IMG/VR virus record: IMGVR_UViG_3300030329_001268
Location: 1 to 55,698 of that record
Origin: a virus
Lineage: Duplodnaviria > Caudoviricetes
Direction: 5' to 3' (one strand)
DNA: 55,698 bases
The notes below the pieces were generated by a model. The model was not told the DNA's origin and did not search any database. It saw only the letters and a list, made by a program, of their open reading frames with translations. Position 1 is the first letter of the stretch; the number at the start of each line of letters is the position of its first letter. A program made the position numbers and the translations under genes. Shown piece after piece: positions 1 through 55,698 of the stretch.

Positions 1-271
1 TTGCTATTGTTGTATCTGTATCAAATGCTGTAGTTGTATCAAAGGTAGTAGTAGTATCATATGCAGTAGTAGTTCCAAAAGTACTTGTTGTGCTTCTGCT
101 TGTTGCTGTATCTCTAGTAGTATTATAAATAGCATTAAAGAATGTAGATAAACTACCATCTGTCTCTTTTACGACAGCATAGTTTACAAATTTGATAGTA
201 CCATCAGTTACTTTAATATGTACCTGTTTAGGTGTTTCTATCGAATCTCCATCCCAAATCTTGAGGGCCAC
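1..271 (-). CDS. 5' part of a Thr/Ser-rich fibre-like protein; runs off the contig end and is not in the ORF track
   Basis: GTG at 271 follows AGAGGAG. Frame is open to base 1: MALKIWDGDSIETPKQVHIKVTDGTIKFVNYAVVKETDGSLSTFFNAIYNTTRDTATSRSTTSTFGTTTAYDTTTTFDTTTAFDTDTTIA. Lies directly downstream of the tail fibre gene. Confidence 0.9.
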   Translation of the reverse strand, partial: MALKIWDGDSIETPKQVHIKVTDGTIKFVNYAVVKETDGSLSTFFNAIYNTTRDTATSRSTTSTFGTTTAYDTTTTFDTTTAFDTDTTIA

Positions 272-288
272 TTTCTACTCCTCTTCTA

Positions 289-2943
289 TTATACCACGTA
301 CCATACAAAACCAGTTTTCTTACCTGTTCCGTTAGTAGGTGCAGAAGTTACTATTGCAAAATCTCTAGTATCAAAATCAGTAAGCGCTACTTGTTTCATT
401 GTTCCATCATCATTAACTACTAACCTATCTCCATCTGCAAGAGTTGTAGAACTGGCAGCTGTTCCTCCATCCATTATATTTAACTCTGTCGCAGTTGATG
501 TTACACCATCTAATATATTAAGTTCTGCTGCAGTACTTGTAACTGATGTGCCATTAATAGATAAAGCATCAGTTTCTAAAGTACCATCAATATCAGCATC
601 ACCACTAATATCTAGTGTTGCAGCATCTAATTCACCACTAATAGTTATGTTTCTACCACCAGTAATGTCTTTATTAGCATCTGTAATAATTGCTTTACTG
701 GCTATTACTGTTCCATTTGTAATTCCGTCTATAAGATTAATATCAGCTGCACTTGCTGTAACACCATCTAAAATATTTAATTCGGCAGTAGTTGAAGTAA
801 CTCCATCCATTATATTAAGTTCAGAAGTTGTAGCAGTTACCCCATCCATAATATTTAATTCAGCAGGAGTAGCGCTAATTTGAGTTGTAGTAGCCGCAGC
901 CAAGACTGGAATATATCCGCCTTGGTTAATTAAATATTGTGTATGGTCTGATGTAGGATCTACTATAGAAAGAGTAGTTTCATTTGAATCTGCGGTTGCC
1001 CCTTCAAAAACAATTGCGTTTGAAGCCTCCATTGTAACTGTATCTGCTGTAGTAGTTGTACCTGCTACAGTCAATTTAGGAACTAATAGTTCGCCTGTAC
1101 TTGGATTATATCTTAAAGCACCAGTATCATCTAACAGCCCATTAGACTCGTCATGAAAAACTATAGGGAAATTAGTGTTTGCTGTACTGTCTGCTACTGT
1201 GGCTGTAGCTGCTAATGTTGCATTTGCTACTGTAGTTCCTGCAATTACACTTGCTAAAGTTGAACCATTAACAGTAATTGCATCTGCTTCCAACGTTCCG
1301 TCTATATCAGCATCTCCACTAATATCTAAACTAGTTGCGTCTACTTCACCTGCAACAGTAACAACACCACTTGACAGCGTTATTAAATCTGTATCACTAG
1401 TATGTCCAATTACTGCACCATCAATTGCAATATTATCAACAGTAAGTGCTGTAAGAGTTCCAAGACTTGTAATGTTTGTTTGTGCCGCGCCTGTTACTGT
1501 AGCTGCTGTACCACTTGCATTACCTGTTACATTACCTGTAATATTACCAGTAAATGTTGAAGTAACTCCTGTAGTAGTAAGCATTCCAGAACTAGGATTA
1601 TATGTTAAACCTGTATCAGACTCTGCTCCCTGCGAACCTGTAGCACCATCTACAAATATTGGATATACTGTTTCGTTTGTGCTGTTATTTGCAGAAACTG
1701 TAATGTTATCAGCAGTTCCTGTAGTGTCCTGGTTAAGTGTACCAATTACAAAATCAAGTGTGTTATCTCCATCTTCATAAGTAACTGTAATACCTGTTTC
1801 AGTATTAGAACCAACCATCGCACCGACTGTATCGGCTATGTATTCGTTTAAAGGCGAACTATCTACAGTAATTGCATCGGCTTCCATCGTGCCATCAACA
1901 TCTATACTACCTGAAAGATCTATATCTCCTGTTACTGCTAAAGTACTTCCATTATAGGTTAATCCTGACTCTGCATCTAGTTCTGTTGTTGTAGCACCTA
2001 CTGTAACAAGTTCATTTTCTGTTGCATTGTTTAATGCAGAAATAGTTCCAGTAGCATTAAAATCTAAAGTATTATCATTGTCGTCATAGGTAACTGTTAC
2101 GTTTGTTTCAGTATTTCCGCTTACCATTGCGCCTACAGTATCTGCAATATATTCACTTAATGTAGTTCCATCTACTGTATAAGCATCAGCCTCAAGAGTT
2201 CCGTCAATATCTGCATCTCCTGAAATATCAAGAGTAGCTGCATCAAGTTCTCCTGATATTGTAATATTTCTACCACCGCTTATATCTTTATTTGAATCAG
2301 TGATAATTGCTTTACTAGCAATAACTGTTCCATTAGTTATACCATCTATAAGATTTATATCTGTAGCACTTGCTGTAACTCCGTCAAGTATGTTTAGTTC
2401 TGCTGTAGTAGAAGTAACTCCGTCAAGAATATTTAATTCTGCAGCAGTTGCTGTGACTCCGTCAAGAATATTTAATTCAGATGCTGTAGATGTTACTCCG
2501 TCTAATATATTCAGTTCAGCAGCTGTTGATGTAATTGCAGTTCCATTAAAATTTATTGCGTCTGCATATATTGTTCCATCAAAATAACCATCTTTAAATT
2601 CTAAAGAACTTGTACCTATATCAATATCATTATCTGTAACAGGAACTATTGCTCCGTCTTGAACTCTAATTTGTTCTACAGCAGCACTAGAAACTTCTAC
2701 AAAAAAACCAACTCTATTATTAGTTCCATCAACAACAACTTTATTTAAAAAGTCTAAATCTCCTATTTGAGGTACATTACCGCCTTGACCTGATGTACCA
2801 TCATGCCTATGTCCAGTGTTTGATGCACTACTTGAACTATAAGTAAATGCATTAACTAATTGATCATATTCATTATTAAATAATGCGGCTGTGATAGTGT
2901 CTCCATCACTAAATGAACTTTGCCTTGTATAACTTTGTGCCAT
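289..2943 (-). CDS. Tail fibre protein with 13-aa repeats
   Basis: 884 aa, rich in T/A/D/G. Tandem TSTAAELNILDGV-type repeats and duplicated GELDAATLDISGDADIDGTLEADA blocks. Follows the tail tubular genes. Confidence 0.8.
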   Translation of the reverse strand: MAQSYTRQSSFSDGDTITAALFNNEYDQLVNAFTYSSSSASNTGHRHDGTSGQGGNVPQIGDLDFLNKVVVDGTNNRVGFFVEVSSAAVEQIRVQDGAIVPVTDNDIDIGTSSLEFKDGYFDGTIYADAINFNGTAITSTAAELNILDGVTSTASELNILDGVTATAAELNILDGVTSTTAELNILDGVTASATDINLIDGITNGTVIASKAIITDSNKDISGGRNITISGELDAATLDISGDADIDGTLEADAYTVDGTTLSEYIADTVGAMVSGNTETNVTVTYDDNDNTLDFNATGTISALNNATENELVTVGATTTELDAESGLTYNGSTLAVTGDIDLSGSIDVDGTMEADAITVDSSPLNEYIADTVGAMVGSNTETGITVTYEDGDNTLDFVIGTLNQDTTGTADNITVSANNSTNETVYPIFVDGATGSQGAESDTGLTYNPSSGMLTTTGVTSTFTGNITGNVTGNASGTAATVTGAAQTNITSLGTLTALTVDNIAIDGAVIGHTSDTDLITLSSGVVTVAGEVDATSLDISGDADIDGTLEADAITVNGSTLASVIAGTTVANATLAATATVADSTANTNFPIVFHDESNGLLDDTGALRYNPSTGELLVPKLTVAGTTTTADTVTMEASNAIVFEGATADSNETTLSIVDPTSDHTQYLINQGGYIPVLAAATTTQISATPAELNIMDGVTATTSELNIMDGVTSTTAELNILDGVTASAADINLIDGITNGTVIASKAIITDANKDITGGRNITISGELDAATLDISGDADIDGTLETDALSINGTSVTSTAAELNILDGVTSTATELNIMDGGTAASSTTLADGDRLVVNDDGTMKQVALTDFDTRDFAIVTSAPTNGTGKKTGFVWYVV

Positions 2944-2946
2944 TTG

Positions 2947-4587
2947 TTATTGTCTCCCCGATGGTATGTAATCTACATAAATTCCGTTAATTGTATATGG
3001 TGAATTTTGATTGTTACTAAAAATTCTAAAATAATTACTGTTGCCACTTCCTTCAACAGTTTGTCTAACAAGAGGATCTGTTTGTCCGCCAAACGTATAA
3101 CCTCCTGCTGTTCCAAAAGTTGCAGTTCCAAATAAACTAGGACTATCGACTGCTAATGTATAATCCGAAGGTTGAGGTGCTGTAAGCCTATCAAAATCGT
3201 ATTTTACTTTTAATTTTGTATCTACTGTTCCTTCAGGAGTAATAGACACACTTACGTATTTTAAAGTTTTTAGAGTTCCTAAATCTCCGTAATCTAATTC
3301 AGGAGTTTGGTATTTCGATAAAATATTAAGTTTGTTTCCTGCTTCATCTAATAAATTATCGCCTATATCATGATTATAAACTTTACCTGCATAATCACCA
3401 TGTAAGTATTGTTCTACTCCATTTGAATTAAATCCTGAAGTTGCTGCAGCACTCGCATCTATTCCTACAGTTTCAGACCATTGAAATTGTGTAATTCCTT
3501 GGTCGTTTGTTTTAATAGTACCTATAATTCCTCTTGAAGATCCGCCTGTATTTGCATCTCCATAGTATAAACGATACTGTGCTTTGTCTCGTATTACAAT
3601 ACTTGCAACATTATATGTTCCAATATTGTCTGCTATATTTTTTATGACAGGTGTAATGGCTCTACTAACTGAGCCTAACTCTACGTCACCAATTCTTGCT
3701 GTACCTGCAAGTGTTCGTATTCCATCAGGCGCTAAGAATACAAGATCACCTGCAATCTCTTGGATACTTCTTCCGTCTAAACAACCTATGTTTTGTGTAA
3801 TAGGTAAAATTGCTATATTATCACTATCATTTATATTAACTAATTTATAAATACTGTTTTTACAAAAGATTATTAAGTCATCCCTAAAAGATCTTAATCC
3901 TATTACTCTATCATCTAAAACAATATTTCCTGATCCTGTTGTTGTAAAATCATCTATATCATTTGTTCCACTATAAAAAATAGTATTTGGTGCTGTTGCA
4001 GCTCCTGCTACAACTAAATGTTTATCATGTATTGTACAGTATTTTGGATAGTGTGTTCCGCTTACTGTTATTTCTTTTGCATAATAAGTTCTGTTACTTA
4101 ATGTACCAGTACCTGTCATTTTAAAATAAAAAGGCTTGACTCCAGAACCTTCATCTGTTATTATAACTTCTCCGTACTCTGTGTCTCCTTCGTAAGTTAT
4201 AATCTGTGCTAAACTTTGTGAAGTTCTAGCAGAAGCACTACGACCTGTAAAAGTACTATAGTTGTCTCCACTACCTGAAACACTTGCTCTATTTATTTGT
4301 AACCAACTTGTTCCGTCTAGGCTAAAATATATGTTTGTTCCTGCGCAAACTATTACTCCGTCTGCATAAATATGTAGTCCTAGTATATCATTATCTACAT
4401 TAGGATTAGCGGCAGAGTCTCCTCCAAATAAAGAGTAACCATTTATTCTTCTGTATCCTCCTTGTACATCAACTTCAAAATTTTCTAAAAGTGTTGCGGC
4501 ACCAGGCTTTCGCATCATTTCAATAGGACTTGAAGATTTATCAAGCCCCCCTTCACATGGAAATGCAAATGGTTGTGATTGTGCCAT
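2947..4587 (-). CDS. Tail tubular protein B-like (nozzle/stabilisation protein)
   Basis: 546 aa, beta-rich. GGL near the N-terminus, ENF..D..GGYRRING, IIFCKNSIYKL and NIGC motifs. Sits after the adaptor gene. Confidence 0.7.
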   Translation of the reverse strand: MAQSQPFAFPCEGGLDKSSSPIEMMRKPGAATLLENFEVDVQGGYRRINGYSLFGGDSAANPNVDNDILGLHIYADGVIVCAGTNIYFSLDGTSWLQINRASVSGSGDNYSTFTGRSASARTSQSLAQIITYEGDTEYGEVIITDEGSGVKPFYFKMTGTGTLSNRTYYAKEITVSGTHYPKYCTIHDKHLVVAGAATAPNTIFYSGTNDIDDFTTTGSGNIVLDDRVIGLRSFRDDLIIFCKNSIYKLVNINDSDNIAILPITQNIGCLDGRSIQEIAGDLVFLAPDGIRTLAGTARIGDVELGSVSRAITPVIKNIADNIGTYNVASIVIRDKAQYRLYYGDANTGGSSRGIIGTIKTNDQGITQFQWSETVGIDASAAATSGFNSNGVEQYLHGDYAGKVYNHDIGDNLLDEAGNKLNILSKYQTPELDYGDLGTLKTLKYVSVSITPEGTVDTKLKVKYDFDRLTAPQPSDYTLAVDSPSLFGTATFGTAGGYTFGGQTDPLVRQTVEGSGNSNYFRIFSNNQNSPYTINGIYVDYIPSGRQ

Positions 4588-5357
4588 TAAACTACTCTTA
4601 CTCTATCATCTGTTATATACTTAGGAGCAGGATTTAAAAGATTAGATCTCATTTGTCTTAATCCTCTATTATAATCATCTAATGCAAAGGCTGATGATTG
4701 TGCATCATCTTTAAACTGATGTATATAATATCTTGCTCTTGCAAGTAATACAGGAGCATACATATCAGGAAAAACAACTGTATCGCCATGAGCGCTTAAT
4801 GCTGTCGGTTGATTCCAAGCAAAAAACCAAACTTTGTAAACTTTGTCAGGTATTGGGCTTACTCCAAAATTTCTACCATCTGTGCTTCTAAACACAACAT
4901 TAGGTGTTCCCCAGTTTTGTGAATCAGCATCATCTATATTTTCTGCTTCTCTTCTAAAATCTTTCCAGTCTTCAAGAGTTACAAATCTAAGATTTCTACT
5001 AGTATAAGGAGCAGACTCTCCGCTTACCCCTATAGTAGTTAAATAAAAGTCATCCCAATTAATAGAACCATAATCATTTGCAGCTGAACTAGAAGATGCT
5101 TTTAATTCATACCATCGTGTACCTGCAACAGTTTCAACAGAAACATTTCCATACATAGGATCTGTTGCCCCACTTTCACCTGTTGCTAAAAAGGGCCATT
5201 GAGGTTCTGCTGTTACTATGTCGTGATAAGCACGATTAACACAGTCTTTTACGTGTGCTTGTACTCCTATAGCACTGCTAAAGTTTCCTGAAGTTAAAGC
5301 AACTTCATTTGTTTCTCTAAGCAATTCATTAGTTAATTGTAAATATGTTGTTGCCAC
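4587..5357 (-). CDS. Tail tubular protein A-like (head-tail adaptor)
   Basis: 256 aa. TYLQLTNELLR start, VNRAY..I.....WPF and P.PDKVY motifs. Lies between capsid and nozzle genes. Confidence 0.7.
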   Translation of the reverse strand: MATTYLQLTNELLRETNEVALTSGNFSSAIGVQAHVKDCVNRAYHDIVTAEPQWPFLATGESGATDPMYGNVSVETVAGTRWYELKASSSSAANDYGSINWDDFYLTTIGVSGESAPYTSRNLRFVTLEDWKDFRREAENIDDADSQNWGTPNVVFRSTDGRNFGVSPIPDKVYKVWFFAWNQPTALSAHGDTVVFPDMYAPVLLARARYYIHQFKDDAQSSAFALDDYNRGLRQMRSNLLNPAPKYITDDRVRVV

Positions 5358-5366
5358 TTATGTCTC

Positions 5367-5522
5367 CTAACAAGGTTTGGCTTTTTGCATACCACCACCA
5401 TAAGCCATTACTCTGTTTTTTCCTGCCTTTTTATCAAAATTACTTTTTGGACCTGATTTAGTCAGAGGTCTTCTTTTATTTTTTGGTTTTGGTTTTGGTT
5501 TCCAATCTCCTGGTTTTGGCAT
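5367..5522 (-). CDS. Small basic protein (51 aa)
   Basis: Manual translation MPKPGDWKPKPKPKNKRRPLTKSGPKSNFDKKAGKNRVMAYGGGMQKAKPC. Packs tightly in the operon. Confidence 0.6.
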   Translation of the reverse strand: MPKPGDWKPKPKPKNKRRPLTKSGPKSNFDKKAGKNRVMAYGGGMQKAKPC

Positions 5523-5525
5523 GGT

Positions 5526-5702
5526 TTACCCCTTTTGTCTATTATAATTTTTTTGTTGTTTACCAAAGATTCTATCCCAACCTTTGCTATATAATTCTTT
5601 ATCTTTTTTACTTAAATGTTTTCCGCCTAACCCTAATTTTCTATTGCCTCTCTTCTTATTTTTTAAGATGACAGGTCTTGAATCTGTACCTACTTGTGGC
5701 AT
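5526..5702 (-). CDS. Small basic protein (58 aa)
   Basis: Manual translation MPQVGTDSRPVILKNKKRGNRKLGLGGKHLSKKDKELYSKGWDRIFGKQQKNYNRQKG. AAGG upstream. Confidence 0.6.
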   Translation of the reverse strand: MPQVGTDSRPVILKNKKRGNRKLGLGGKHLSKKDKELYSKGWDRIFGKQQKNYNRQKG

Positions 5703-5725
5703 ATTTTTTACCTTTTAATTTAAGA

Positions 5726-5766
5726 GTATGGGGAGGAATACTCCGATAGAATACCCTCCCACATAC
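5726..5766 (-). terminator. Stem-loop just after the major capsid gene; probable terminator or mRNA stabiliser
   Basis: GTATGTGGGAGGGTATTCT-ATC-GGAGTATTCCTCCCCATAC imperfect hairpin. U-tract is weak. Confidence 0.55.
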
Positions 5767-5783
5767 AATGTTTTGCTAATCGA

Positions 5784-6782
5784 TTAGTCGATAGCGTAGA
5801 AAGCAGACACAAGCGCTTCGCTACGAAGTACATCACATCCATAGACATGAAGACCTCTAACGATGTCACCAAAACTGTCAGGATCACGGATCACTTCAGT
5901 TTGTGTAATTGCTTGTGCAGTAGCTGCAGCTGAGATATGTCCGCAAATTACTTTACCACTTGCTGTAGAAGCAGCAGCAATGTTATTAGACTTGTACATA
6001 TCAAAACCACGCAACTTACCGCTTGAGACTAAGCCATTTCTAAGAGAACCTTGACCTGCGTTGTAGTCAACTGACATTAGTTTAGAACTTGATTGAGACA
6101 GTTGCTCATACCAAGAAGGAGGAGCAAGAAACCATCTTCCTTCTTCAGGAATGTTTTGCTCATCCAGTAATCTAGCCATAAATGCCATTACATCAAGAGG
6201 ATCTGCTCCAGTACCATCAGAACCTGTAAGGTCGATAGAGTTAGAACCGCCTTGATGTTGCCCCATTGTTTGAGTAGCAGCAGCAGCGTCTGCACCTAAT
6301 ACGTGATCAGGTGAAGAACTAGATACTCCACTAAACAATTCGGCAATAACACCTTCGTCAAAAGCATCTTTAAGAGCGTAAGCTGCAGAAGAGGATGCTA
6401 CCTCTTTCCAGTTTACGTGAGACATAGATTTCTCAATGTCATCTACTTTGAATTTGAAAGCGTTTGCTACATCAACAGTAAGGGTTTCTTCCATGTCCGT
6501 CAACTTAGTTTGCGTTACGTCAGCCCCTCTTTCATACTGAAAAACAGTAATCGTAGGTTCTTTGACTATCCGTACTGTGTCACCAAATGCAGAAATATCA
6601 CCTGAGTAATCAGTATTTGTGATTGCTTCTGCAACTGAGGCTTTTCTAAAAAAGTTAAGTACCTTCTTGGAATAAACCTTAGGCATGAAGAATGCATTAG
6701 TTTGTCCAGATATGGAGTTCGCAAAGTTGCCGTTCTCATCAGTCGACTGCTCAAATAAAGCATCAGATTGATTATAAGCCAT
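5784..6782 (-). CDS. Major capsid protein
   Basis: 332 aa. FMPKVYSKKVL, GDISAFGDTVRI, FKFKVDDIE and RDPDSFGDIVRGLHVYG motifs. Follows the scaffold gene. Confidence 0.9.
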   Translation of the reverse strand: MAYNQSDALFEQSTDENGNFANSISGQTNAFFMPKVYSKKVLNFFRKASVAEAITNTDYSGDISAFGDTVRIVKEPTITVFQYERGADVTQTKLTDMEETLTVDVANAFKFKVDDIEKSMSHVNWKEVASSSAAYALKDAFDEGVIAELFSGVSSSSPDHVLGADAAAATQTMGQHQGGSNSIDLTGSDGTGADPLDVMAFMARLLDEQNIPEEGRWFLAPPSWYEQLSQSSSKLMSVDYNAGQGSLRNGLVSSGKLRGFDMYKSNNIAAASTASGKVICGHISAAATAQAITQTEVIRDPDSFGDIVRGLHVYGCDVLRSEALVSAFYAID

Positions 6783-34094: not shown

Positions 34095-36339
34095 GATTTC
34101 CTCCGTCTAAGTTTGGTTGTAAGTTTCTCATTTGTGTTAATGTGTTTATTGATGCAGAAGCCAAGCCATAAAAACCTACAGTATTGTCAGGTAAAACTGC
34201 ATTAGCATACATTGTTTTTGGCTCATACCATGTAGGCTGTGGAGGCATTGACGCATTTCTATACGCATCAAAACCTTCCACATAGCCCATGTATGCAATC
34301 AATTGAGAAGAGTCTGCATACTCTCCTGTTTCTGATTGTTGCTCCTCCATTTCCTGTTGCTGTTGTTTTATATTTTGAGCAACAGTTGTAACCTCTTGTT
34401 TAGATTCTACTGTTGTAGTTGTTTCTCCCATATCTGTATTGGTTGCAACAGTTGTTTCTATTGTAGCAGTAGTTGTAGAAGTACCTGCTACTGTTGTTGT
34501 TTCTGTATTTGTTTCTGTGGCTGTATTTTCATTGGTTGTTTCTGTTGTGCTTGTTGTAGTGGCAACGGAAGCACTTGAAAAATTCTGACTACTTGTTCCT
34601 GTATTTATGTTTGAAGACATTGTAAGTACTTGCTGTGTCTGTGCAGCAGAGGCGCTGATCTGTGCTGATATTGAAGGGGAACTTGAAAAACTTACAGATC
34701 CTCCTGTTGATGAAGCAACTGTAGCCTGTGTACTTGCAGTATTAGATGTTCCTCCTGATGCCACTGTATTACCAGTAGAATGAACAGAATTACCTGCGGT
34801 TGTTCCGCTCATACTATTTACAGCTGCCAGTACTGTTCCTTTTACAACTTGTAATTGTTTTTCTAATTTATTTTCTTTTTCAGTTTCTTCTTCTATTTCT
34901 TCTTCAATAATTTCTTCTATATCTTCTTCTCTTTCTTCTTCTAATTCTTCTTCAGGTTCTTCTTCTGACATTTCTTCTTCAAACCATTCATCTAATTCTT
35001 CAATACTTTCAAATTCTAAAACTTCTTCTATCTGTTCTTCGCTTATCTCTTCCATTATAAGCATTCTTTCGGCTTCTTGAATTAAAGGCTCATTTACTTG
35101 TACTAAATAATCTACGTCATATTCTTCAAAGTCTGTCAAGAACTCTACAAATTCTTCTTCTGTTATTGGAAGTTCTTCTATAATTTCAGGAAGTTCTTCT
35201 TCTATAATGTATACTAAGTCATCAAAAGGAAGATGTTCTTCAGGCGGATCTAACCATATAAGTTCTTCAGGAATATCATCTATGACTATAGGAAGAAAAG
35301 GATCATCTACATGTTCTTGTGAATAAAACTCTTCGTAGTATTCTTCTACATAAAATTCTTCAGAAAAATATTCAGAAGGATCTTCATAATAATATTCTTC
35401 TTCTATGTAGCCATAGTCATATTCTTCTTCAGCATATCCATAATCAAATTCTTCTTGTTGTACAAAGTAAGCAACAGATTGTTGAGTTGTATAGCCTGGA
35501 CAAAAAGGTGCGTACTGAGGATCAAGATCACATTGCTGATCATCATATGCTTCCCAATATCCTGTACATAGATTACTGTATAAAGGATTTAATGTGCATT
35601 GCTGAACTAAATAAGCCGCTTCATAACCTGCACATTCAGTACTGCTTAAAGGATTAACAGAACAAGCATCATTGTATGTAAGAGATTTGTTTTCTAATAG
35701 AGTATTAAAACTACTATTGTTCCAGTCTTGGTTAACACACGTACTTAAATTTGTTGTGCCTGTATTACATTCATCAAAGAATAAATACTGTTTATAATTG
35801 TTAGAATCTCCTTGTATTCCTATAACAACATCGTGGGTTTTTATATCTAATGCACCATATCTAAATTCTATTTTAGAATTTTGCTCATATAAAAACATTT
35901 CAAAAGTGTTATCAGAATTGCTTCTATTATATTCTCTTAAATCATACCATCCTACTACAAAATAATCTTCAAAAGACTTGGAAAGTATTTTAGATTGGTT
36001 ATCTCTTATAAGATCAGTCCAAAAAGGATAGATGGTATAATTCGTGTCAGGTAAGGGATCAGGAGTATAGTCATTGCAATACGCTGTGGTGAAAGAAAAA
36101 CAACCATTAGTTGATATATATCCTTTGTCATATGTTTGATCAAAAAATTCAAAATCAAATCCTATGTCGACCAAGCCTGATCGACCATCATCACTTATAT
36201 TATATTGAGTTGTACCTGTTTGATTTCTCAGGTCGAGAATACTGGCTGTTCCTGTAGTCCAATCAGTTGCACTTAAATTAAAAGATAATAAAAGAGTTCC
36301 TAATAGTAGACTAAGTTTGGTTTTTAAATTCTCTAACAC
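34078..36339 (-). CDS. Secreted protein with a NIDO-like domain, Cys repeats, and Glu-rich and Ser/Thr-rich regions
   Basis: Signal peptide LSLLLGTLLLSFNLSA. DD......IGFDFEFF..TY...YISTNG, IYPFWTDL and NTFE..LY...IEFRYG motifs. Three C..(N/D)P....C.GY repeats. Confidence 0.7.
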   Translation of the reverse strand: MLENLKTKLSLLLGTLLLSFNLSATDWTTGTASILDLRNQTGTTQYNISDDGRSGLVDIGFDFEFFDQTYDKGYISTNGCFSFTTAYCNDYTPDPLPDTNYTIYPFWTDLIRDNQSKILSKSFEDYFVVGWYDLREYNRSNSDNTFEMFLYEQNSKIEFRYGALDIKTHDVVIGIQGDSNNYKQYLFFDECNTGTTNLSTCVNQDWNNSSFNTLLENKSLTYNDACSVNPLSSTECAGYEAAYLVQQCTLNPLYSNLCTGYWEAYDDQQCDLDPQYAPFCPGYTTQQSVAYFVQQEEFDYGYAEEEYDYGYIEEEYYYEDPSEYFSEEFYVEEYYEEFYSQEHVDDPFLPIVIDDIPEELIWLDPPEEHLPFDDLVYIIEEELPEIIEELPITEEEFVEFLTDFEEYDVDYLVQVNEPLIQEAERMLIMEEISEEQIEEVLEFESIEELDEWFEEEMSEEEPEEELEEEREEDIEEIIEEEIEEETEKENKLEKQLQVVKGTVLAAVNSMSGTTAGNSVHSTGNTVASGGTSNTASTQATVASSTGGSVSFSSSPSISAQISASAAQTQQVLTMSSNINTGTSSQNFSSASVATTTSTTETTNENTATETNTETTTVAGTSTTTATIETTVATNTDMGETTTTVESKQEVTTVAQNIKQQQQEMEEQQSETGEYADSSQLIAYMGYVEGFDAYRNASMPPQPTWYEPKTMYANAVLPDNTVGFYGLASASINTLTQMRNLQPNLDGGNHGMVK

Positions 36340-37480
36340 ACGTTAGCCTTGATTTTTTTACCTTAGTTTTTTCGGCTCTGCATCTTTTAACATATCTGTC
36401 TTTAGCCTCTTGGTAGTCAGGTCTATCTTCAGGGTTCTGTCTCCATGCAGTTTTTGCTTCTTCCCCTATCTTACCTTCGTAAGGGCATGGAGTACCTGCC
36501 ATATGCATTGCTTTAAAAACTCTAGGATCCTGGCACAATACTCCAACTGCCGCTATTTTCATACCAGTATCATAAAGATATTTAGAAAGTTTTAAACGTT
36601 CACAATTCTCATCTCTTACTGCTTTACCGCCTGAAAGACCAAACACTTGTCCTTGAAACGCACCACTTACACCTGTAGTACAAAGGTCTTGGCTGTAACT
36701 CATAATAGAAGGAGCAATCGCAGAAGCAGGTGGCGCTTTTTGCGTGATATTCTGATTGATAGTCTGTTCAGACTTGCTCTCATTTATGTTCCGATTGGTG
36801 TTGTCAGAAGTACTAGTATTGACGTTATTATTATTGTTTGTATTTTCCGAAGTAACGTTTGACTCGGATGTATTTTTATTTATATTTGTATTTTGATTCG
36901 TGTTGTTGCTAGTACTAGTATTGACGTTATTATTATTGTTTGTATTATTTGATGTTGTATTATTATTGTTTGTGTTAGTCGAATTTACTGTACTAGATAC
37001 AGTTGAATTAGTTGTATTATTATTGGTATTAACACTAGTAGATGAACTAACGTTGTTATTGTTGTTTGTGTTGGTCTGCGTACCAGTTGTCGTAACAGTG
37101 TTGACATTGTTATTATTGTTTGTATTTGTTGCTGTTGAATTGTTAGTGTTTACGTTAGTTGCTGTTGACGTGCTTGTATTTACATTTGTCGTTGAACTAG
37201 TGTTATTATTAGTATTGACATTTGTGTTACTGTTTGTTGCTGTCGTTGTTGTTGTGTTGACATTTGTATTACTATTGGTGTTAACATTTGTATTACTGTT
37301 GGTGTTAACATTTGTATTACTGTTTGTTGTAGTTGTAGTATTTGTTGTATTTAATGAGTTAGCCTCACAATATTCTGTACCTGCTGTACATGTTCCTGTT
37401 TGAGTATCTGCCTTTACAGGAGTACCCAAGAAAAGAGCAGAGAGAAACAATGCTCCTAATAAAATTTTTTGTTTCATCAT
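36311..37480 (-). CDS. Secreted Asn/Thr-repeat protein with a Cys-rich C-terminal domain
   Basis: ATG at 37480 after GGAGG. Signal peptide, about 200 aa of N-x alternation, then an APPASAIAP...C...C...C...CP domain. Confidence 0.8.
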   Translation of the reverse strand: MMKQKILLGALFLSALFLGTPVKADTQTGTCTAGTEYCEANSLNTTNTTTTTNSNTNVNTNSNTNVNTNSNTNVNTTTTTATNSNTNVNTNNNTSSTTNVNTSTSTATNVNTNNSTATNTNNNNNVNTVTTTGTQTNTNNNNNVSSSTSVNTNNNTTNSTVSSTVNSTNTNNNNTTSNNTNNNNNVNTSTSNNTNQNTNINKNTSESNVTSENTNNNNNVNTSTSDNTNRNINESKSEQTINQNITQKAPPASAIAPSIMSYSQDLCTTGVSGAFQGQVFGLSGGKAVRDENCERLKLSKYLYDTGMKIAAVGVLCQDPRVFKAMHMAGTPCPYEGKIGEEAKTAWRQNPEDRPDYQEAKDRYVKRCRAEKTKVKKSRLTCVREFKNQT

Positions 37481-37667
37481 CTGCCCTCCTCTAAGCAAAG
37501 TTGAAATTAACTTAATAAATCAAAATGTATAAGAACATCAAATAGTAAATAAGCAAATAAAAGCCTAAACATAAAACGATACCTAACGACATCGGCTGTT
37601 AAAGTTGCGAGGTCTTCTTTATTTATATGAACCCATTTTCTATAGTTGTCTTGTTCCATTTTATTCA

Positions 37668-39181: not shown

Positions 39182-39209
39182 ATTATAGTCCGTATTTCTA
39201 GGCTGTCAA
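39182..39209 (-). promoter_or_regulatory. sigma70-like promoter ahead of the lysis/hsp20 block
   Basis: TTGACA-16 nt-TATAAT. Confidence 0.55.
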
Positions 39210-50537: not shown

Positions 50538-52598
50538 TTATCCAAAGAATCGTTTTACAAGTGCTTCAATAGTTCCTAGATTAGAACTCCAATTACTTGA
50601 TGCTTCACCTTCATTAGCAATTGCTGTTGCAAGTAATTGAGTTTTTCTAGTTTCTTCATTATCAGCCCATTTATTATCAAACGTTGCTTGATCTCTCATT
50701 TCTTGCCACAAAAATCCTAATGCCTGTGTGCTTAATCCAAAAGCGTTCATAGCATTTCTCATATTTGCTTCGTTGGCTGCAGCTGTATCAATCATATTTG
50801 ACTGCCTTCTCCATTGAACATTTGATTGTGCTACTGCTTGTGCATTGGCTTTGTTCCATTGTTCTCTATTAAAATCAACTTGATTATTATATTTATTAAT
50901 TTCTGTAACCATTGCAGCATTTGCTCTATTAAGGTCTGCTTCAATAGCAACTCTTCTTGCTTCTGCAGCGTTTTCTTGAGCAGCATTAAACTGTGCCATT
51001 GCAGTTTTTTGTTGAGCATTTGACAACTCTACCTGCTGTGCCATTGTAGCCATAAACTGCTGTGCTTGATTTGTTCCAATCATATTTGCATTTCGTGCTG
51101 CATTCTCAGCCGATTGGTTTGTAAGTAGTCGTTGTTGCTCAAGTTGAGCCTTTAGAACATGTCCTTGTTGTGCGTTACTTAAATTTTGCATATCCATACT
51201 TAAAAAAGACTGAGCATTTTGAGCAGCTAGTTTAGTATTAGCATCTAAGTTTGCCATATCTAAATTTGCCATGTTTGCTGCATTTTGTAAAACAGCAGTA
51301 TTTTCAGCACTAGTATCTGTTAATGATACAGTTTGTAAAAACTTACTATTAGATAATCTAGTCTGTTGTTCAGCACTAAAATTAGCCATGTCCATTTGAA
51401 AAACATTGTTAGCATTTGCTAATGCTGTTTGTTGTGCCATCTGAGCGTCTGCTTGTGCAGCTTGTGCTTCTATGCCTCTTTGATTAAAAACACTTTCTTT
51501 TATAGATTGAGCATTGCTTTGTGCTAAAGGAATTGCTGCAGTTATAAAACTATTTATTAAAGCATCTCTACCAACACTAGAGGCTTCTAATCCTCTTTTT
51601 GCTAACATATTATTAACTGCCGCTACAGCAGGTCTAGCAAATATAGGGATCTCTCCTTCTTCTACACCTTCTAATAACGTTGTTAATTGGTGAGAAACAA
51701 GCGCTTCTTCAGGAAGCCCTGCAATCATTCCTCGCTCTGCTTCTGTGTAATCTCCTACTTTATCTTCTAAAGCATCAGGATTGTTTCCAATATCTTGAAT
51801 TTGTTCTTCGGTTAATCCTGCTTTTCTTAGTTGTTTTTTAGCACGTAGCATTCTAGGAAGATTAGTACCTGCAACTTTTGCTGCTGTTGCTTTGGCTTGA
51901 GGACTAACAGTACCAGTAACTATTTGAGATAATGCCTGAGATGCTTGGTCTTGATCAACACTAATTCCTTGAGCCGAAAGACTTAGACTTGCTTCTTGAA
52001 CTTCGGCTACTGCTTCATCGCTTAATGTTCCTTCTTTTCCTTTAATAAAAGGACTGTCAGCAACTTTAGCAGCTGTCATTGTTGCTACAGGTCTGTCTTT
52101 TCCTCTTCTAGCAGCGGATGCTTTACCTGTTGCTACTGTTTCTTCGTCAGGTTGTACTATTTTTTCTGCTGTCGCATCACCTGGATCTACCATCTGCCTT
52201 GCTGAACCCGCAATGGCTTTGTTCGTCTTTGCTGTTTTTATTTTAGCAGAATCAGGAAGTTCTCCTGTTAATGCAGAAGATACTTTTTCTCTAACTGATG
52301 TTGCGCTTTCATCTGTAATATCTGCATATTGTCCGCTTCCTTGTCCTCCGGGTGTCCATTCATATCCTGTCTTAGCAGGATCATAATTAGGAACACCTGG
52401 GGTAGAAGGAGTATTAGGACTGTTAGGATCGTTAGGATCAGGGTTATTTGCATGATATGTATTGTATGCTTCCAGTGCAAACTCAAATTCATCTTGCGAT
52501 GAAAAATCTCTTCTATATGGTCTTACACCATGCCAAAGCCTGACTCTTCCGCCCTTTCTGTAATCTTCTCTAACTACTGTATTTCTTTTACGTGTCAT
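50538..52598 (-). CDS. Putative ejection protein with an A/Q/N-rich coiled coil
   Basis: 686 aa. LAKRGL..SS motif and a long QxNA-type helical region. Confidence 0.65.
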   Translation of the reverse strand: MTRKRNTVVREDYRKGGRVRLWHGVRPYRRDFSSQDEFEFALEAYNTYHANNPDPNDPNSPNTPSTPGVPNYDPAKTGYEWTPGGQGSGQYADITDESATSVREKVSSALTGELPDSAKIKTAKTNKAIAGSARQMVDPGDATAEKIVQPDEETVATGKASAARRGKDRPVATMTAAKVADSPFIKGKEGTLSDEAVAEVQEASLSLSAQGISVDQDQASQALSQIVTGTVSPQAKATAAKVAGTNLPRMLRAKKQLRKAGLTEEQIQDIGNNPDALEDKVGDYTEAERGMIAGLPEEALVSHQLTTLLEGVEEGEIPIFARPAVAAVNNMLAKRGLEASSVGRDALINSFITAAIPLAQSNAQSIKESVFNQRGIEAQAAQADAQMAQQTALANANNVFQMDMANFSAEQQTRLSNSKFLQTVSLTDTSAENTAVLQNAANMANLDMANLDANTKLAAQNAQSFLSMDMQNLSNAQQGHVLKAQLEQQRLLTNQSAENAARNANMIGTNQAQQFMATMAQQVELSNAQQKTAMAQFNAAQENAAEARRVAIEADLNRANAAMVTEINKYNNQVDFNREQWNKANAQAVAQSNVQWRRQSNMIDTAAANEANMRNAMNAFGLSTQALGFLWQEMRDQATFDNKWADNEETRKTQLLATAIANEGEASSNWSSNLGTIEALVKRFFG

Positions 52599-52609
52599 TG
52601 TTTTTCCTA

Positions 52610-52852
52610 TTATTTAACCTCAAATAGTTTATCAAGTTTATCTTCTAATTTATTTAACATACGAACTAATCGATCCATGTTTGTTTCTAATTCTTCTTTT
52701 GTTACATAATCTCTTGCAACTTCTTCTCTAGTTTTATTTAAAAGAACATCTATTCTTTTATTCTCATTAGCATTTTCTCTCATCCCATATATTATAGGCG
52801 CTAATACTAACGTTATAAAAGCGATCCAAATTTCCATTGCTTGTAATTCCAT
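52610..52852 (-). CDS. Small TM plus coiled-coil protein
   Basis: N-terminal TM; LLNKTREEVARDYVTK and KLEDKLDKL. Confidence 0.7.
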   Translation of the reverse strand: MELQAMEIWIAFITLVLAPIIYGMRENANENKRIDVLLNKTREEVARDYVTKEELETNMDRLVRMLNKLEDKLDKLFEVK

Positions 52853-52854
52853 TT

Positions 52855-53412
52855 CTAGTTTCCAAATTCTTTTTTAAATTCTAAATTATAAGCATTCTGA
52901 CGTTTAGTAAAATAATCAGGATCTGCTTCTTTTCCTTCTACAAAGTTTTTTACTTCGTTATTTGTTTTTTTCCAAACTTTATAATAATCAGTTTTTCTAA
53001 GTTTAGATGCATATTTAAATGTTTTTTCGTGGTTCTGCATAAAGAAAATAATATATTCACCATTTGTTATATCTGTATTTCCTACTACTTCACTCCATTC
53101 AGGATGATCTTCTACAAAAACTAATCCTCTTTCTTCTGCAAGTTTTTGTGTTTTTCGTGCTACTTTAAAAGTTTCTTGTATGCTCCATCTATCTTTTTCA
53201 AAAATAAGTAAAGTTATATCGTGTTTACTTAGATCCATTTCTTTAACACAAATTGCAATATCTTCATCGGGCCTATCATTATTAAACTCTATAATGTTTA
53301 ATCTTTTAGAAATTCTTGCTTCTTTAGCATATGGACAAACAGGTAAATTTCCAAAATCAATATTAGGTTTTTCTACAAAATTTTTGATCCATAGATCAAT
53401 TGCATGTTTCAT
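52855..53412 (-). CDS. DUF1415-like protein
   Basis: WI..FVE.PN...NLPVCPYA and DHP motifs. Confidence 0.55.
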   Translation of the reverse strand: MKHAIDLWIKNFVEKPNIDFGNLPVCPYAKEARISKRLNIIEFNNDRPDEDIAICVKEMDLSKHDITLLIFEKDRWSIQETFKVARKTQKLAEERGLVFVEDHPEWSEVVGNTDITNGEYIIFFMQNHEKTFKYASKLRKTDYYKVWKKTNNEVKNFVEGKEADPDYFTKRQNAYNLEFKKEFGN

Positions 53413-53960
53413 TAAACAATTACCGAGATAACTAATTTTTTATACGTCTGTCCGTAATGGTCTTCTATTGTTTCAGGAGTTGTATACGTTATCCATCCCT
53501 CATTAACTGATTTATCCCATGCTGCTTCCATTCCTGATCCTTCAAAAGTCCATGTTGAAAAAGTTGTTTCATCAGGAGCAAGACTTTTAAAAAAAGCATC
53601 TAACTTTTGATGGTACTCTGCTGTGTAACTCCAACCTTGGCTTCCACTTGCATCTTGTCGCATAAGATCCATCATGTGACAATACATTCCATTTTTCTCA
53701 CGTATTGCATAATTATAATTTACAATCCGACCATCTATATCTATTTTAAAAATAATAGATCCTGTACTTGAATCTTCATACCTGGCTCTTAATGCTTCAA
53801 ACTTTTCATCATTAGTACTAGAAACAGTTAATTCAAATTCTTCCCATACAATATTCGGAATAGGACTAGCATCTAAATAAGGTAAAGATTTATCAAAACA
53901 ATCTCTTAAAATAGCCTGATCTATATCACTATAATTAATTTGTGTTACAGTCATTGTCAT
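53412..53960 (-). CDS. Hypothetical protein
   Basis: ATG at 53960 follows GGAGG and lies 1 nt after the upstream stop. Preferred over 53987. Confidence 0.7.
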   Translation of the reverse strand: MTMTVTQINYSDIDQAILRDCFDKSLPYLDASPIPNIVWEEFELTVSSTNDEKFEALRARYEDSSTGSIIFKIDIDGRIVNYNYAIREKNGMYCHMMDLMRQDASGSQGWSYTAEYHQKLDAFFKSLAPDETTFSTWTFEGSGMEAAWDKSVNEGWITYTTPETIEDHYGQTYKKLVISVIV

Positions 53961-53961
53961 T

Positions 53962-55698
53962 TTAATCTTCCTCCCACGAATCGCCATCCCAATATCTAGC
54001 GTTATGCGCAGATCCCGATGCTACTTCTGTTTCAATAATAGAACCAGTGTTTCCTGTTGCAGTACTTCTTTCAAAAACTGTAGTGTTTGTATCAAACGTT
54101 GTAGTTGTACTTTTAGTAGTGTCTGTTGTTTTACTCGTTCCACTTGCTCTACTAGTTGCAGTGCTTTTACTTGTTCCTGTAGCATATGCAGTTTGAAAGG
54201 CAGTAGTAGTATTTTTACTAGTTGCAGTTGCTTTACTAGTTGCAGTTGCAAAAGCAGTTGTAGTAGTTCCTGCTGTGTTTGTTTGGAACGAAGTATCAGT
54301 TGCTTTGCTCGTTCCTGTAGCGCTTGTAGTATCTTTAGTAGTTGCTATTGTTGTATCAGTAGCGGTAGTTTTACTCGTTCCAGTCGCTTTTGAAGTATCA
54401 TAAGCAGTTGTTGTGTTTGTATCAAATACGCTTGTTGTACTTCTACTTGTTGCTGTAGCGCTTGATGTGTCGTATGTAGTAGTTGTATCAAACGTTGTAG
54501 TAGTGTTTGTTCCTCTACTAGTTCCTGTTGCAATTGCAGTATCCGTATCAAAAGTTGTAGTCGTACCATAAGTAGTTGTAGTATTAGTTGCAATTGTTGT
54601 ATCAGTTGCTGTAGCCTTACTAGTTGCTGTTGCTTTTGAAGTATCATACGTAGTTGTAGTATCAGTATCAAAAGTTGTAGTAGTATTTGTTGCTATTACA
54701 GTGTCTTCGTCTGTTGACTTACTGGTAGCAGTAGCATAAGCAGTTGCAGTATCAAAAGTTGTAGTAGTGTCAAATGATGTAGTAGTGTTTGTTGCTATTA
54801 CAGTGTCTTCATCTGTTGATCTACTTGTGCCTGTTGCTTTACTTGTTGCAGTATTGAAACTATAAGTTGTTCCAGTTGTTTTACTTGTATTATAAGTAGT
54901 TGTAGTATTAAAACTATACGTTGTTCCAGTATCTCTACTTGTTCCAGTATTTTTGCTTGTTCCTTTACTAGTATTAAATGTAGTCGTTCTGCTTGTATTA
55001 AATGTAGTAGACCTGCTTGTATTATATGTTGTTGACCTACTCGTATTAAATGTTGTAGTTTTGCTTGTATTAAAAGTATAACTAGTATTCCTAGATCCAG
55101 AGGTACTCTTAGTTCCTGAAGTTGCTGTACTAAAACTATAACTTGTATTAAAACTGTATGTAGTATTTCTACTTCCTGATGTGCTAGTACTTTTAGTTCC
55201 TGATGTCGAAGTTGATCTTGAAGTACTATTACTCAGTTGGTTATTTTTTCCGTAATACGTTGTCCAGGTTGTCGTTGTATTAAAACTATATCCTGTATTA
55301 GTGTTAAAACTGTATGAAGTACTTCTGCTTCCTGATGTACTTGTTGTGCCTGATGTTGTGGTATTAAAACTATATCCTGTATTAAAACTGTAACTTGTAG
55401 ATTTACTTCCTGACGTATTAAACGTAGTTGTTCTACTTGTATTATATGTAGTATTTCTACTTGTATTAAACGTAGTTGTTCTACTTGTATTATATGTTGT
55501 CGACCTACTTGTGTTATATGTAGTATTAAACGAAGTAGTTGTATTAAACGAAGTAGTAGTGTTTGTAGCACCGCTAGTTGCTGTAGACTTACTTGTATTA
55601 TACGTAGTTGTCGTATTCGTATCGCCTGATGTTGCTGTATCAAAAGTCGTTGTAGTATCAAACGAAGTTGTAGTCGCAGTACCATACGCTGTTTCAGT
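53962..55698 (-). CDS. 3' part (578 codons) of the Thr/Ser-rich self-complementary fibre protein; not in the ORF track
   Basis: Stop-free frame from 55698 (TETAYGTATTTSFDTTTTFD...) to ...SAHNARYWDGDSWEED-TAA. Same repeat grammar as 1-271. Confidence 0.9.
   Translation of the reverse strand, partial: TETAYGTATTTSFDTTTTFDTATSGDTNTTTTYNTSKSTATSGATNTTTSFNTTTSFNTTYNTSRSTTYNTSRTTTFNTSRNTTYNTSRTTTFNTSGSKSTSYSFNTGYSFNTTTSGTTSTSGSRSTSYSFNTNTGYSFNTTTTWTTYYGKNNQLSNSTSRSTSTSGTKSTSTSGSRNTTYSFNTSYSFSTATSGTKSTSGSRNTSYTFNTSKTTTFNTSRSTTYNTSRSTTFNTSRTTTFNTSKGTSKNTGTSRDTGTTYSFNTTTTYNTSKTTGTTYSFNTATSKATGTSRSTDEDTVIATNTTTSFDTTTTFDTATAYATATSKSTDEDTVIATNTTTTFDTDTTTTYDTSKATATSKATATDTTIATNTTTTYGTTTTFDTDTAIATGTSRGTNTTTTFDTTTTYDTSSATATSRSTTSVFDTNTTTAYDTSKATGTSKTTATDTTIATTKDTTSATGTSKATDTSFQTNTAGTTTTAFATATSKATATSKNTTTAFQTAYATGTSKSTATSRASGTSKTTDTTKSTTTTFDTNTTVFERSTATGNTGSIIETEVASGSAHNARYWDGDSWEED

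Follow-up and report, generated by a model that had tools for sequence, protein, structure and literature searches.

Antiparallel pairing between two halves of one chain over a long distance is found in the hairpin arms of SMC, Rad50 and MukB and in the D0/D1 domains of flagellin. In the stalk of antigen I/II-type streptococcal adhesins, which are bacterial cell-wall adhesins, an alpha-helix is paired with a polyproline helix. The triple beta-helix of T4 gp5C and gp12 and the adenovirus triple beta-spiral are built from three intertwined chains that run one way from base to tip. The central sheet of OspA is a single-layer beta-sheet, and cross-strand pairs of aromatic residues with Lys or Arg occur in designed hairpins; the known examples span tens of residues.

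Here we describe a Thr-rich phage protein, called the hairpin protein below, for which these nearest known systems can serve as analogies only. As in SMC, Rad50, MukB and flagellin D0/D1, both termini would lie at one end, with a hinge or variable domain at the apex and arms of equal length, but the SMC, Rad50 and MukB arms are alpha-helical heptads, whereas the hairpin protein would have Thr-rich strands with a residue-by-residue aromatic/basic code. Pfam and PDB sequence searches gave no sequence relation to coiled-coil arms or flagellin. With antigen I/II the protein would share a long thin stalk made from N- and C-side repeats of one chain and a variable tip domain, but its predicted pairing is beta/beta and it is phage-encoded. 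The trimeric shafts would resemble it in being thin, variable in length and built of short repeats within a viral host-recognition module, whereas the N- and C-arms of the hairpin protein are in antiparallel register and its termini would both be at the base. The likeness to OspA and designed hairpins would lie in a core-free beta-sheet with cross-strand side-chain pairs and high-propensity Thr, but in this protein family the arms are ~70 to ~690 residues long.

The two contig ends carry one interrupted gene

The window, the whole stretch of DNA analyzed here, is an entire assembly consisting of one contig of 55,698 bp. A minus-strand ORF (271..2) starts with GTG at 271..269, preceded by a GAGGAG-like ribosome site, and encodes 90 residues (MALKIWDGDS...TDTTIA) before it runs off base 1, with that base left over. 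This N-terminal fragment of the hairpin gene (1..271, minus strand) contains a ~55-aa base domain with the KIWDGDS motif, followed by the first 6-residue stalk repeats. At the other end, a minus-strand ORF (55698..53962) enters from the last base and encodes 578 residues plus a stop codon (53962-53964), ending in ...ARYWDGDSWEED. This C-terminal fragment (53962..55698, minus strand) comprises the distal N-arm, the turn, the whole C-arm and the C-terminal base segment. WDGDS is present at each terminus, as the initial annotation had pointed out. Joining the ends directly gives, as also annotated, a frameshift and an immediate stop (one codon, then TGA), because one base, base 1, is left over.

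It had been proposed from the letters of the window that the two ends are one gene split by assembly inside a repeat, with 198 codons missing in a gap of about 593 nt, a protein of about 866 aa and a circular map of about 56.3 kb. All of this was borne out by L041, a near-identical metagenome scaffold that holds both halves plus 593 nt; it may come from the same or a related sample and so may not be independent of the window. Positions 1-1478 of L041 equal window 1478..1 at 100% identity, so that the N-terminal fragment corresponds exactly to L041 1208-1478. Positions 2072-6477 equal window 55698..51293 with 4 mismatches in 4406 (99.9%), and the C-terminal fragment corresponds to L041 2072-3808, also at 99.9%. 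Between the two matches lie L041 1479-2071, exactly 593 nt. The intact ORF (L041 1208..3808) encodes 866 aa, of which the gap supplies residues 91-288; the gap is an open frame and holds no other genes. The implied map is 55,698 + 593 = 56,291 bp.

Contigs from three runs of three studies (X3, X4 and X5) tile L041 1100-2362 with 0-1 differences. Record 14 of X4 covers L041 1244-2053, and record 15 covers L041 2024-2169. Among the four runs compared, the gap is covered by overlapping short contigs, and no single contig spans all of it. A run designated X10 contains two "skip" joints inside the gap (550 and 432 nt), in which the short side is 21 letters only; we set these aside as repeat or other-strain artefacts. 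A search of 50,697 phage records for near-identical DNA of both window ends gave no match.

The break in the assembly has ordinary causes, an exact repeat at one end and a variant site and contig boundary at the other. The 55698 end falls inside a 20-nt exact repeat (L041 2069-2088 equals 1967-1986). No repeat of at least 20 nt within the gene was found at the base-1 end, which adjoins a variant site (L041 1477, A>G in X3, X4 and X5) and coincides with a contig boundary in X10. We conclude that the window is a circular map cut by the assembler inside a repeat-rich gene, which the 593 nt restore to full length, and that the 866-aa product is probably one giant intramolecular beta-hairpin.

A single antiparallel register in the hairpin protein family

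In each complete ORF of the family, we counted aromatic residues (F, Y, W) opposite basic residues (K, R) at every antiparallel register i + j = s. The best register was i + j = L + 15 to L + 17 in 35 of 41 unique complete ORFs (230-1486 aa). The L041 protein has 47 pairs at sum 882 compared with 21 at its next register, and 200 parity-preserving shuffles of its C-arm gave 9.45 +/- 2.46 pairs with a maximum of 18. The corresponding best and next registers hold 40 and 19 pairs in relative L001 and 62 and 32 pairs in relative L003.

The initial annotation paired six residues of the N-terminal fragment with the C-arm at an exact 6-residue spacing. These pairs (R59-F535, F65-K529, Y71-K523, F77-R517, F83-K511 and I89-Y505) are indeed found, spaced as described, at a constant sum of N-fragment and C-fragment positions (i + c = 594). 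The C-arm segment that faces these first stalk repeats, with F535, K529, K523, R517, K511 and Y505, is encoded at 54094..54186 on the minus strand, inside the interval of about 54075-54190 that had been named. Taken by itself, the pairing of the N-terminal fragment is not above chance, with 5 aromatic/basic pairs against up to 7 at unrelated offsets. The above-chance signal arises because the C-terminal fragment pairs with itself and the intact homologues obey the same rule. Within the window alone, the self-pairing of the C-terminal fragment gives 22 pairs at sum 306 and 12 at the next register, and this center combined with the family rule gives L = 1172 - 306 = 866.

Partner preferences in the stalks of the 35 on-register proteins are strong for each of the coded residues. 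Lys is opposite Phe or Tyr in 289 of 300 cases, Arg is opposite Phe, Tyr or Trp in 407 of 437, His faces Tyr in 92 of 101, and Ile faces Tyr or Phe in 146 of 169. Asp and Asn are opposite Ser or Thr in 400 of 514 and 372 of 456 cases, respectively. The aromatic/basic pairs in these stalks all fall on one parity, corresponding to one face of a ribbon, and the coded stalk positions keep an even spacing. A constant i + j with like pairs on one parity is the pattern of a two-stranded antiparallel hairpin.

The arm that survives in the window also describes the arm that was lost. The C-arm segment facing the 198 missing codons (residues 594-791; 54190..54783, minus strand) makes 20 aromatic/basic pairs with residues 91-288 of the L041 protein. 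The missing residues had been expected to mirror this segment, and in the L041 gap 10 of its 11 Lys or Arg residues face Phe or Tyr. Of its 14 aromatic residues, 10 face Lys or Arg and one faces Ile, and all four of its Ile residues face Tyr.

The length differences between relatives follow the same symmetry. Compared with L001, the L041 protein has two extra stretches of 36 aa each, at 161-196 and 686-721, which are exact mirrors, and also extra residues at 401-406 and 475-480. In the other direction, L001 has extra residues at 304-317 plus 325-326, against an extra 502-517. In a subfamily that carries a tip domain, the arms of proteins with 76-95% identity differ in length by +10/+10 or +20/+20 residues. 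Such mirrored indels are what physical, bulge-free pairing of the arms would predict: if the register has to be kept, a change of length in one arm would be tolerated only together with its mirror image in the other, and with the arms locked in this way an intact arm could predict a lost one.

Six of the 41 ORFs are off the rule. In L012 the best register ties with L + 16, L043 is frameshifted, and the short variant L045 (171 aa) makes few pairs. The register is shifted by 10 residues in L071 and L054 and by 24 in L050; real bulges or collapsed repeats may account for these shifts.

Relatives and variants of the hairpin gene

Searching with the N-terminal 90 residues brought up 37 loci among viral contigs and 67 among metagenome contigs. 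The gene is intact in L001 (814 aa), L003 (1354 aa) and L042 (814 aa), where it shares its N-terminus and its C-terminus (...ARYWDGDSWEED) with that of the window and lies between a ~900-aa fiber-like gene upstream and ~193-aa and ~176-aa genes downstream. The C-terminal base segment (...VFERSTATGNTGSIIETEV...ARYWDGDSWEED; 53965..54078, minus strand) contains columns that are invariant in all members of the subfamily. Length is hypervariable among relatives, with a 6-fold range.

Searches with the 866-aa protein returned no Pfam or PHROGs family at E <= 0.01 and no PDB sequence at E <= 1. The C-terminal RYWDG..W motif is similar to that of DUF2510 (PF10708), a short domain with a W-x-DG-x-x-W motif. 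Membership in this family was rejected, since the distant homologue L099 reached 21.1 bits (E 2.7e-4), under the curated cut-off of 24 bits, and L041 had no match. Atlas matches were to unnamed viral clusters only, and 47 relatives, likewise unnamed, came from a word-index search. When 1.84 billion cluster representatives were searched with a profile, only 40 matched at E <= 0.001, many of them fragments; these include further architectures but no named relative. In tblastn against 50,697 phage records, the 866-aa protein, its N-domain, the neighboring 191-aa protein and a 999-aa tip-bearing relative had no match, with the caveat that low-complexity filtering in BLAST may have masked some of the stalk. 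We found no description of the hairpin protein in open-access full text. The article text of PMC9038755, a source on HMO-2011-type phages, has no occurrence of "threonine", "hairpin" or "tail fiber", and its supplementary tables may list the gene as hypothetical.

Other subfamilies have constant registers of their own (L + 17, L + 20-22 and L + 9-11), and some have an inserted aromatic-rich tip domain or place the hairpin on other base domains. In L036, L099 (a 1004-aa frame) and P0001-P0028, an aromatic-rich globular domain of ~80-100 aa sits exactly at the hairpin center; it has conserved GGY.Y..G and YY..RRR motifs and is hypervariable among close relatives. A group of short proteins (~170-265 aa; P0035-P0046, P0054-P0056, P0067 and P0072) consists of the Thr-rich hairpin with minimal termini (MS.F...NFYA) and has a register of L + 9 to L + 11. 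P0060 and P0076 carry the module behind an unrelated N-terminal domain of ~190 aa, with Trp opposite Lys. From these architectures, the Thr-rich hairpin looks like a portable stalk module. Six loci (L008, L009, L051, L057, L061 and L064) hold two hairpin-gene paralogues a few kb apart, and those of L008 and L009 encode 230 aa and 321 aa.

A frameshift within the repeats cuts short the gene copies at L004 6001-7581 and L043 142-1827, and L004 also holds N bases; these truncations are likely assembly errors in a repeat-rich gene. L007 and L018 are the two ends of one 59,857-bp contig that likewise ends inside a copy of this gene family, and the gene is therefore a recurrent assembly breakpoint. 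The i + j = L + 16 rule can serve as a misassembly check for this repeat gene, and it flags the frameshifted or collapsed copies in L004, L043, L050, L054 and L071.

Genome context and possible role

Judged by its genes, the genome belongs to the HMO-2011-type marine podophages. Its portal shares 61.6% identity with that of Pelagibacter phage HTVC115P and 49.1% with that of HMO-2011, and head, portal, terminase, primase/helicase, DNA polymerase and RNR genes are present. The homologous portal, the order of modules and the map of 56,291 bp agree with this type, in which genomes are ~52-56 kb. The gene order is terminase, portal, a scaffold-like gene, major head protein, a 546-aa structural protein, an 884-aa fiber-like gene and the hairpin gene. 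The fiber-like gene (289..2943, minus strand) lies immediately upstream, and the same order is found in L001, L003 and L004; the hairpin gene therefore belongs to the structural or host-recognition module. The 884-aa protein matches five PHROG families of unknown function, and in Pfam it has a weak Bactofilin match only (29.7 bits). It contains 13-aa repeats of the AELNILDGVT type, encoded by 39-nt tandem repeats at 758-873 and 2353-2534.

Downstream, the end of the hairpin gene overlaps by 26 nt with a conserved gene for a 191-aa protein (53412..53987, minus strand), which has a homologue in 37 of 107 loci. This homologue starts ~20-25 nt before the hairpin stop codon in every row checked (L001, L003, L008, L010-L013, L041 and L042), and it is always beside the ...WDGDSWEE[D/A] subfamily. 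It was not matched in loci with the ...WDGSSWTG paralogue or the distant family alone. The 191-aa protein is without a Pfam or PHROG family and may be an assembly partner of the hairpin protein. Further ORFs of the module downstream encode 686, 375, 204, 453 and 2730 aa, the last as a single ORF at 39198-47390 on the minus strand. A 395-aa ORF (36311-37498, minus strand) has a signal-peptide-like start, then a long low-complexity run rich in Asn and Thr (tandem 24-nt repeats at 37250-37342) and a C-terminal part that contains Cys.

In HTVC115P, the closest isolate, unrelated small genes occupy the position of the hairpin gene, and the locus is therefore variable. Among the phage records searched, no cultured phage was found with the gene. 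Going by gene position only, it is about an even call that the hairpin protein is a virion fiber or whisker used for host adsorption.

A predicted two-stranded ribbon and its alternatives

Our preferred reading of the protein is a giant intramolecular stalk, a two-stranded beta-ribbon that has both termini at its base and turns tightly at its tip. In the proposed arrangement, the N-terminal domain of ~55 aa and the C-terminal segment of ~40 aa, both with WDGDS, would come together at the base. From there, two Thr-rich arms of ~380 residues each would extend outward and return, forming an antiparallel ribbon of two strands, with residue i opposite residue L + 16 - i along the full length. The center of symmetry lies at residue 441 of the 866-aa protein. 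The putative tip spans W433 to R449 (WTTYYGKNNQLSNSTSR; 55216..55266, minus strand), in agreement with both the center sum of 306 in the C-terminal fragment and the register of 882 in L041, and the arms would turn at WTTYYGKNNQ. One face would have, at every second to fourth pair, an aromatic residue with Lys or Arg (also Tyr/His or Tyr/Ile), set between Thr/Thr pairs; on the other face, Asp or Asn would lie opposite Ser or Thr, with small residues around them. The ribbon would be extended and, at 0.33 nm per residue, about 125 nm long. Both faces are polar, and for this reason the stability of a lone ribbon is uncertain.

An AlphaFold2 model of a 270-aa homologue (30 aligned relatives) has strands at 94-138 and 148-192, whose ends sum to 286, the register of this protein, and further strands at 41-68 and 216-242. 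The model is of low confidence, with a mean pLDDT of 40.7, and the Atlas model is also of low confidence. In a 302-aa tip-bearing relative, paired strands at 103-120 and 197-214 flank a tip domain of ~80 aa. The block-mean pLDDT is 71-93 over residues 121-200 in the tip domain and 25-48 in the stalk blocks. The predicted topology thus agrees with arms that are hydrogen-bonded as a hairpin, at low confidence given a stalk pLDDT below 50. A fold search with the tip-bearing model, in which the stalk is of low confidence, gave no match at E <= 0.001 in either PDB or BFVD, a result of little weight for that reason.

Three described architectures were considered and rejected. An antiparallel coiled-coil hairpin of the SMC/Rad50 type does not fit the DSSP assignment of the AlphaFold models, which contain strands only and no helices, or the even spacing of the coded positions. 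A unidirectional trimeric shaft is at odds with the one antiparallel register in 35 of 41 ORFs and with the mirrored indels, and no profile match to such a shaft was found in Pfam or PHROGs. A solenoid of local ~20-aa hairpin repeats, as in choline-binding or CROP proteins, is set aside by the single global center, with 47 pairs in L041 against at most 21 elsewhere.

A two-fold antiparallel dimer would account just as well for the register rule, the partner table and the mirrored indels. In such a homodimer, or in a higher beta-assembly, extended chains would be arranged head to tail, residue i would face residue L + 16 - i of another chain and the central motif would be the dyad instead of a turn. 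Phage fibers are usually oligomers, and this general habit favors a dimer or larger assembly. We nevertheless regard it as unlikely, and as less likely than the intramolecular ribbon, because the centers are turn-like, with Gly/Pro/Asn-rich motifs (GKNN, NLPGKGG and ADENTQG), and because in the tip-bearing subfamilies the globular domain sits exactly at the center, where the monomer model pairs its two ends. AlphaFold also folds single chains back on themselves, and the register extends to the conserved N- and C-terminal segments. A complex prediction with three copies of the 270-aa homologue scored 0.00, without controls, and speaks neither for nor against oligomerization.

The hairpins of several subunits could also be joined edge to edge in a long soluble beta-barrel tube, similar to the stems of hairpin pore-formers, that serves as a tail extension or conduit and not as an adsorption fiber. 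The gene does lie between the fiber gene and the large downstream ORFs, which, from T7-like gene order, we take to be possible internal or ejection proteins, and long-hairpin pore stems are among the weak fold matches. These matches all have E > 0.5 and none is significant (zero at E <= 0.001), however, and the 6-fold length variation and the bulky variable tip domains are ill-suited to a conduit of fixed span. A tube of this kind is quite improbable.

There is very little room for a disordered, mucin-like Thr-rich linker whose symmetry is accidental and whose contig ends were joined by chance. The composition is extremely biased and the AlphaFold and Atlas models have low confidence, as a linker would have it, but a single sharp register extends over up to ~690 residues per arm, 93-96% of Lys and Arg residues are opposite aromatics, shuffles fail to reproduce the signal, and the length prediction was exact; the mirrored indels also stand against it. 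Finally, a complementarity test gave no support to the idea that the mirror pattern merely follows from an inverted repeat or a hairpin in DNA or mRNA, which is very improbable: the Phe/Lys (TTT/AAA) and Ile/Tyr (ATA/TAT) codon pairs used here are reverse complements, but the dominant F-R, Y-K, Y-R, Y-H and T-T pairs have codons that are not complementary. In five of five genes the Watson-Crick complementarity found at the protein register, 0.29-0.36, is no higher than at many other registers (z 0.9-1.5).

Returning to the intramolecular ribbon, we tentatively suggest, at somewhat less than an even chance, that it represents a kind of protein rod that has not been described: a single-chain, coreless ribbon of ~20 to ~230 nm with a near-deterministic code, changed in length by mirrored indels and used by abundant ocean podophages as an adjustable adsorption whisker that can carry a swappable tip domain.

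Significance

A rule read from raw sequence foretold an assembly gap to the base, which shows that a hard physical constraint lies behind the rule. Should the ribbon exist, it would be a new way of building a long thin protein, in which length is set by adding mirrored pairs of repeats, and it would be of interest for protein design and for the study of beta-sheet stability. HMO-2011-type phages are described as a dominant and widely distributed marine viral group (PMC9038755). A real ribbon would mean that these phages carry an unrecognized host-interaction organelle.
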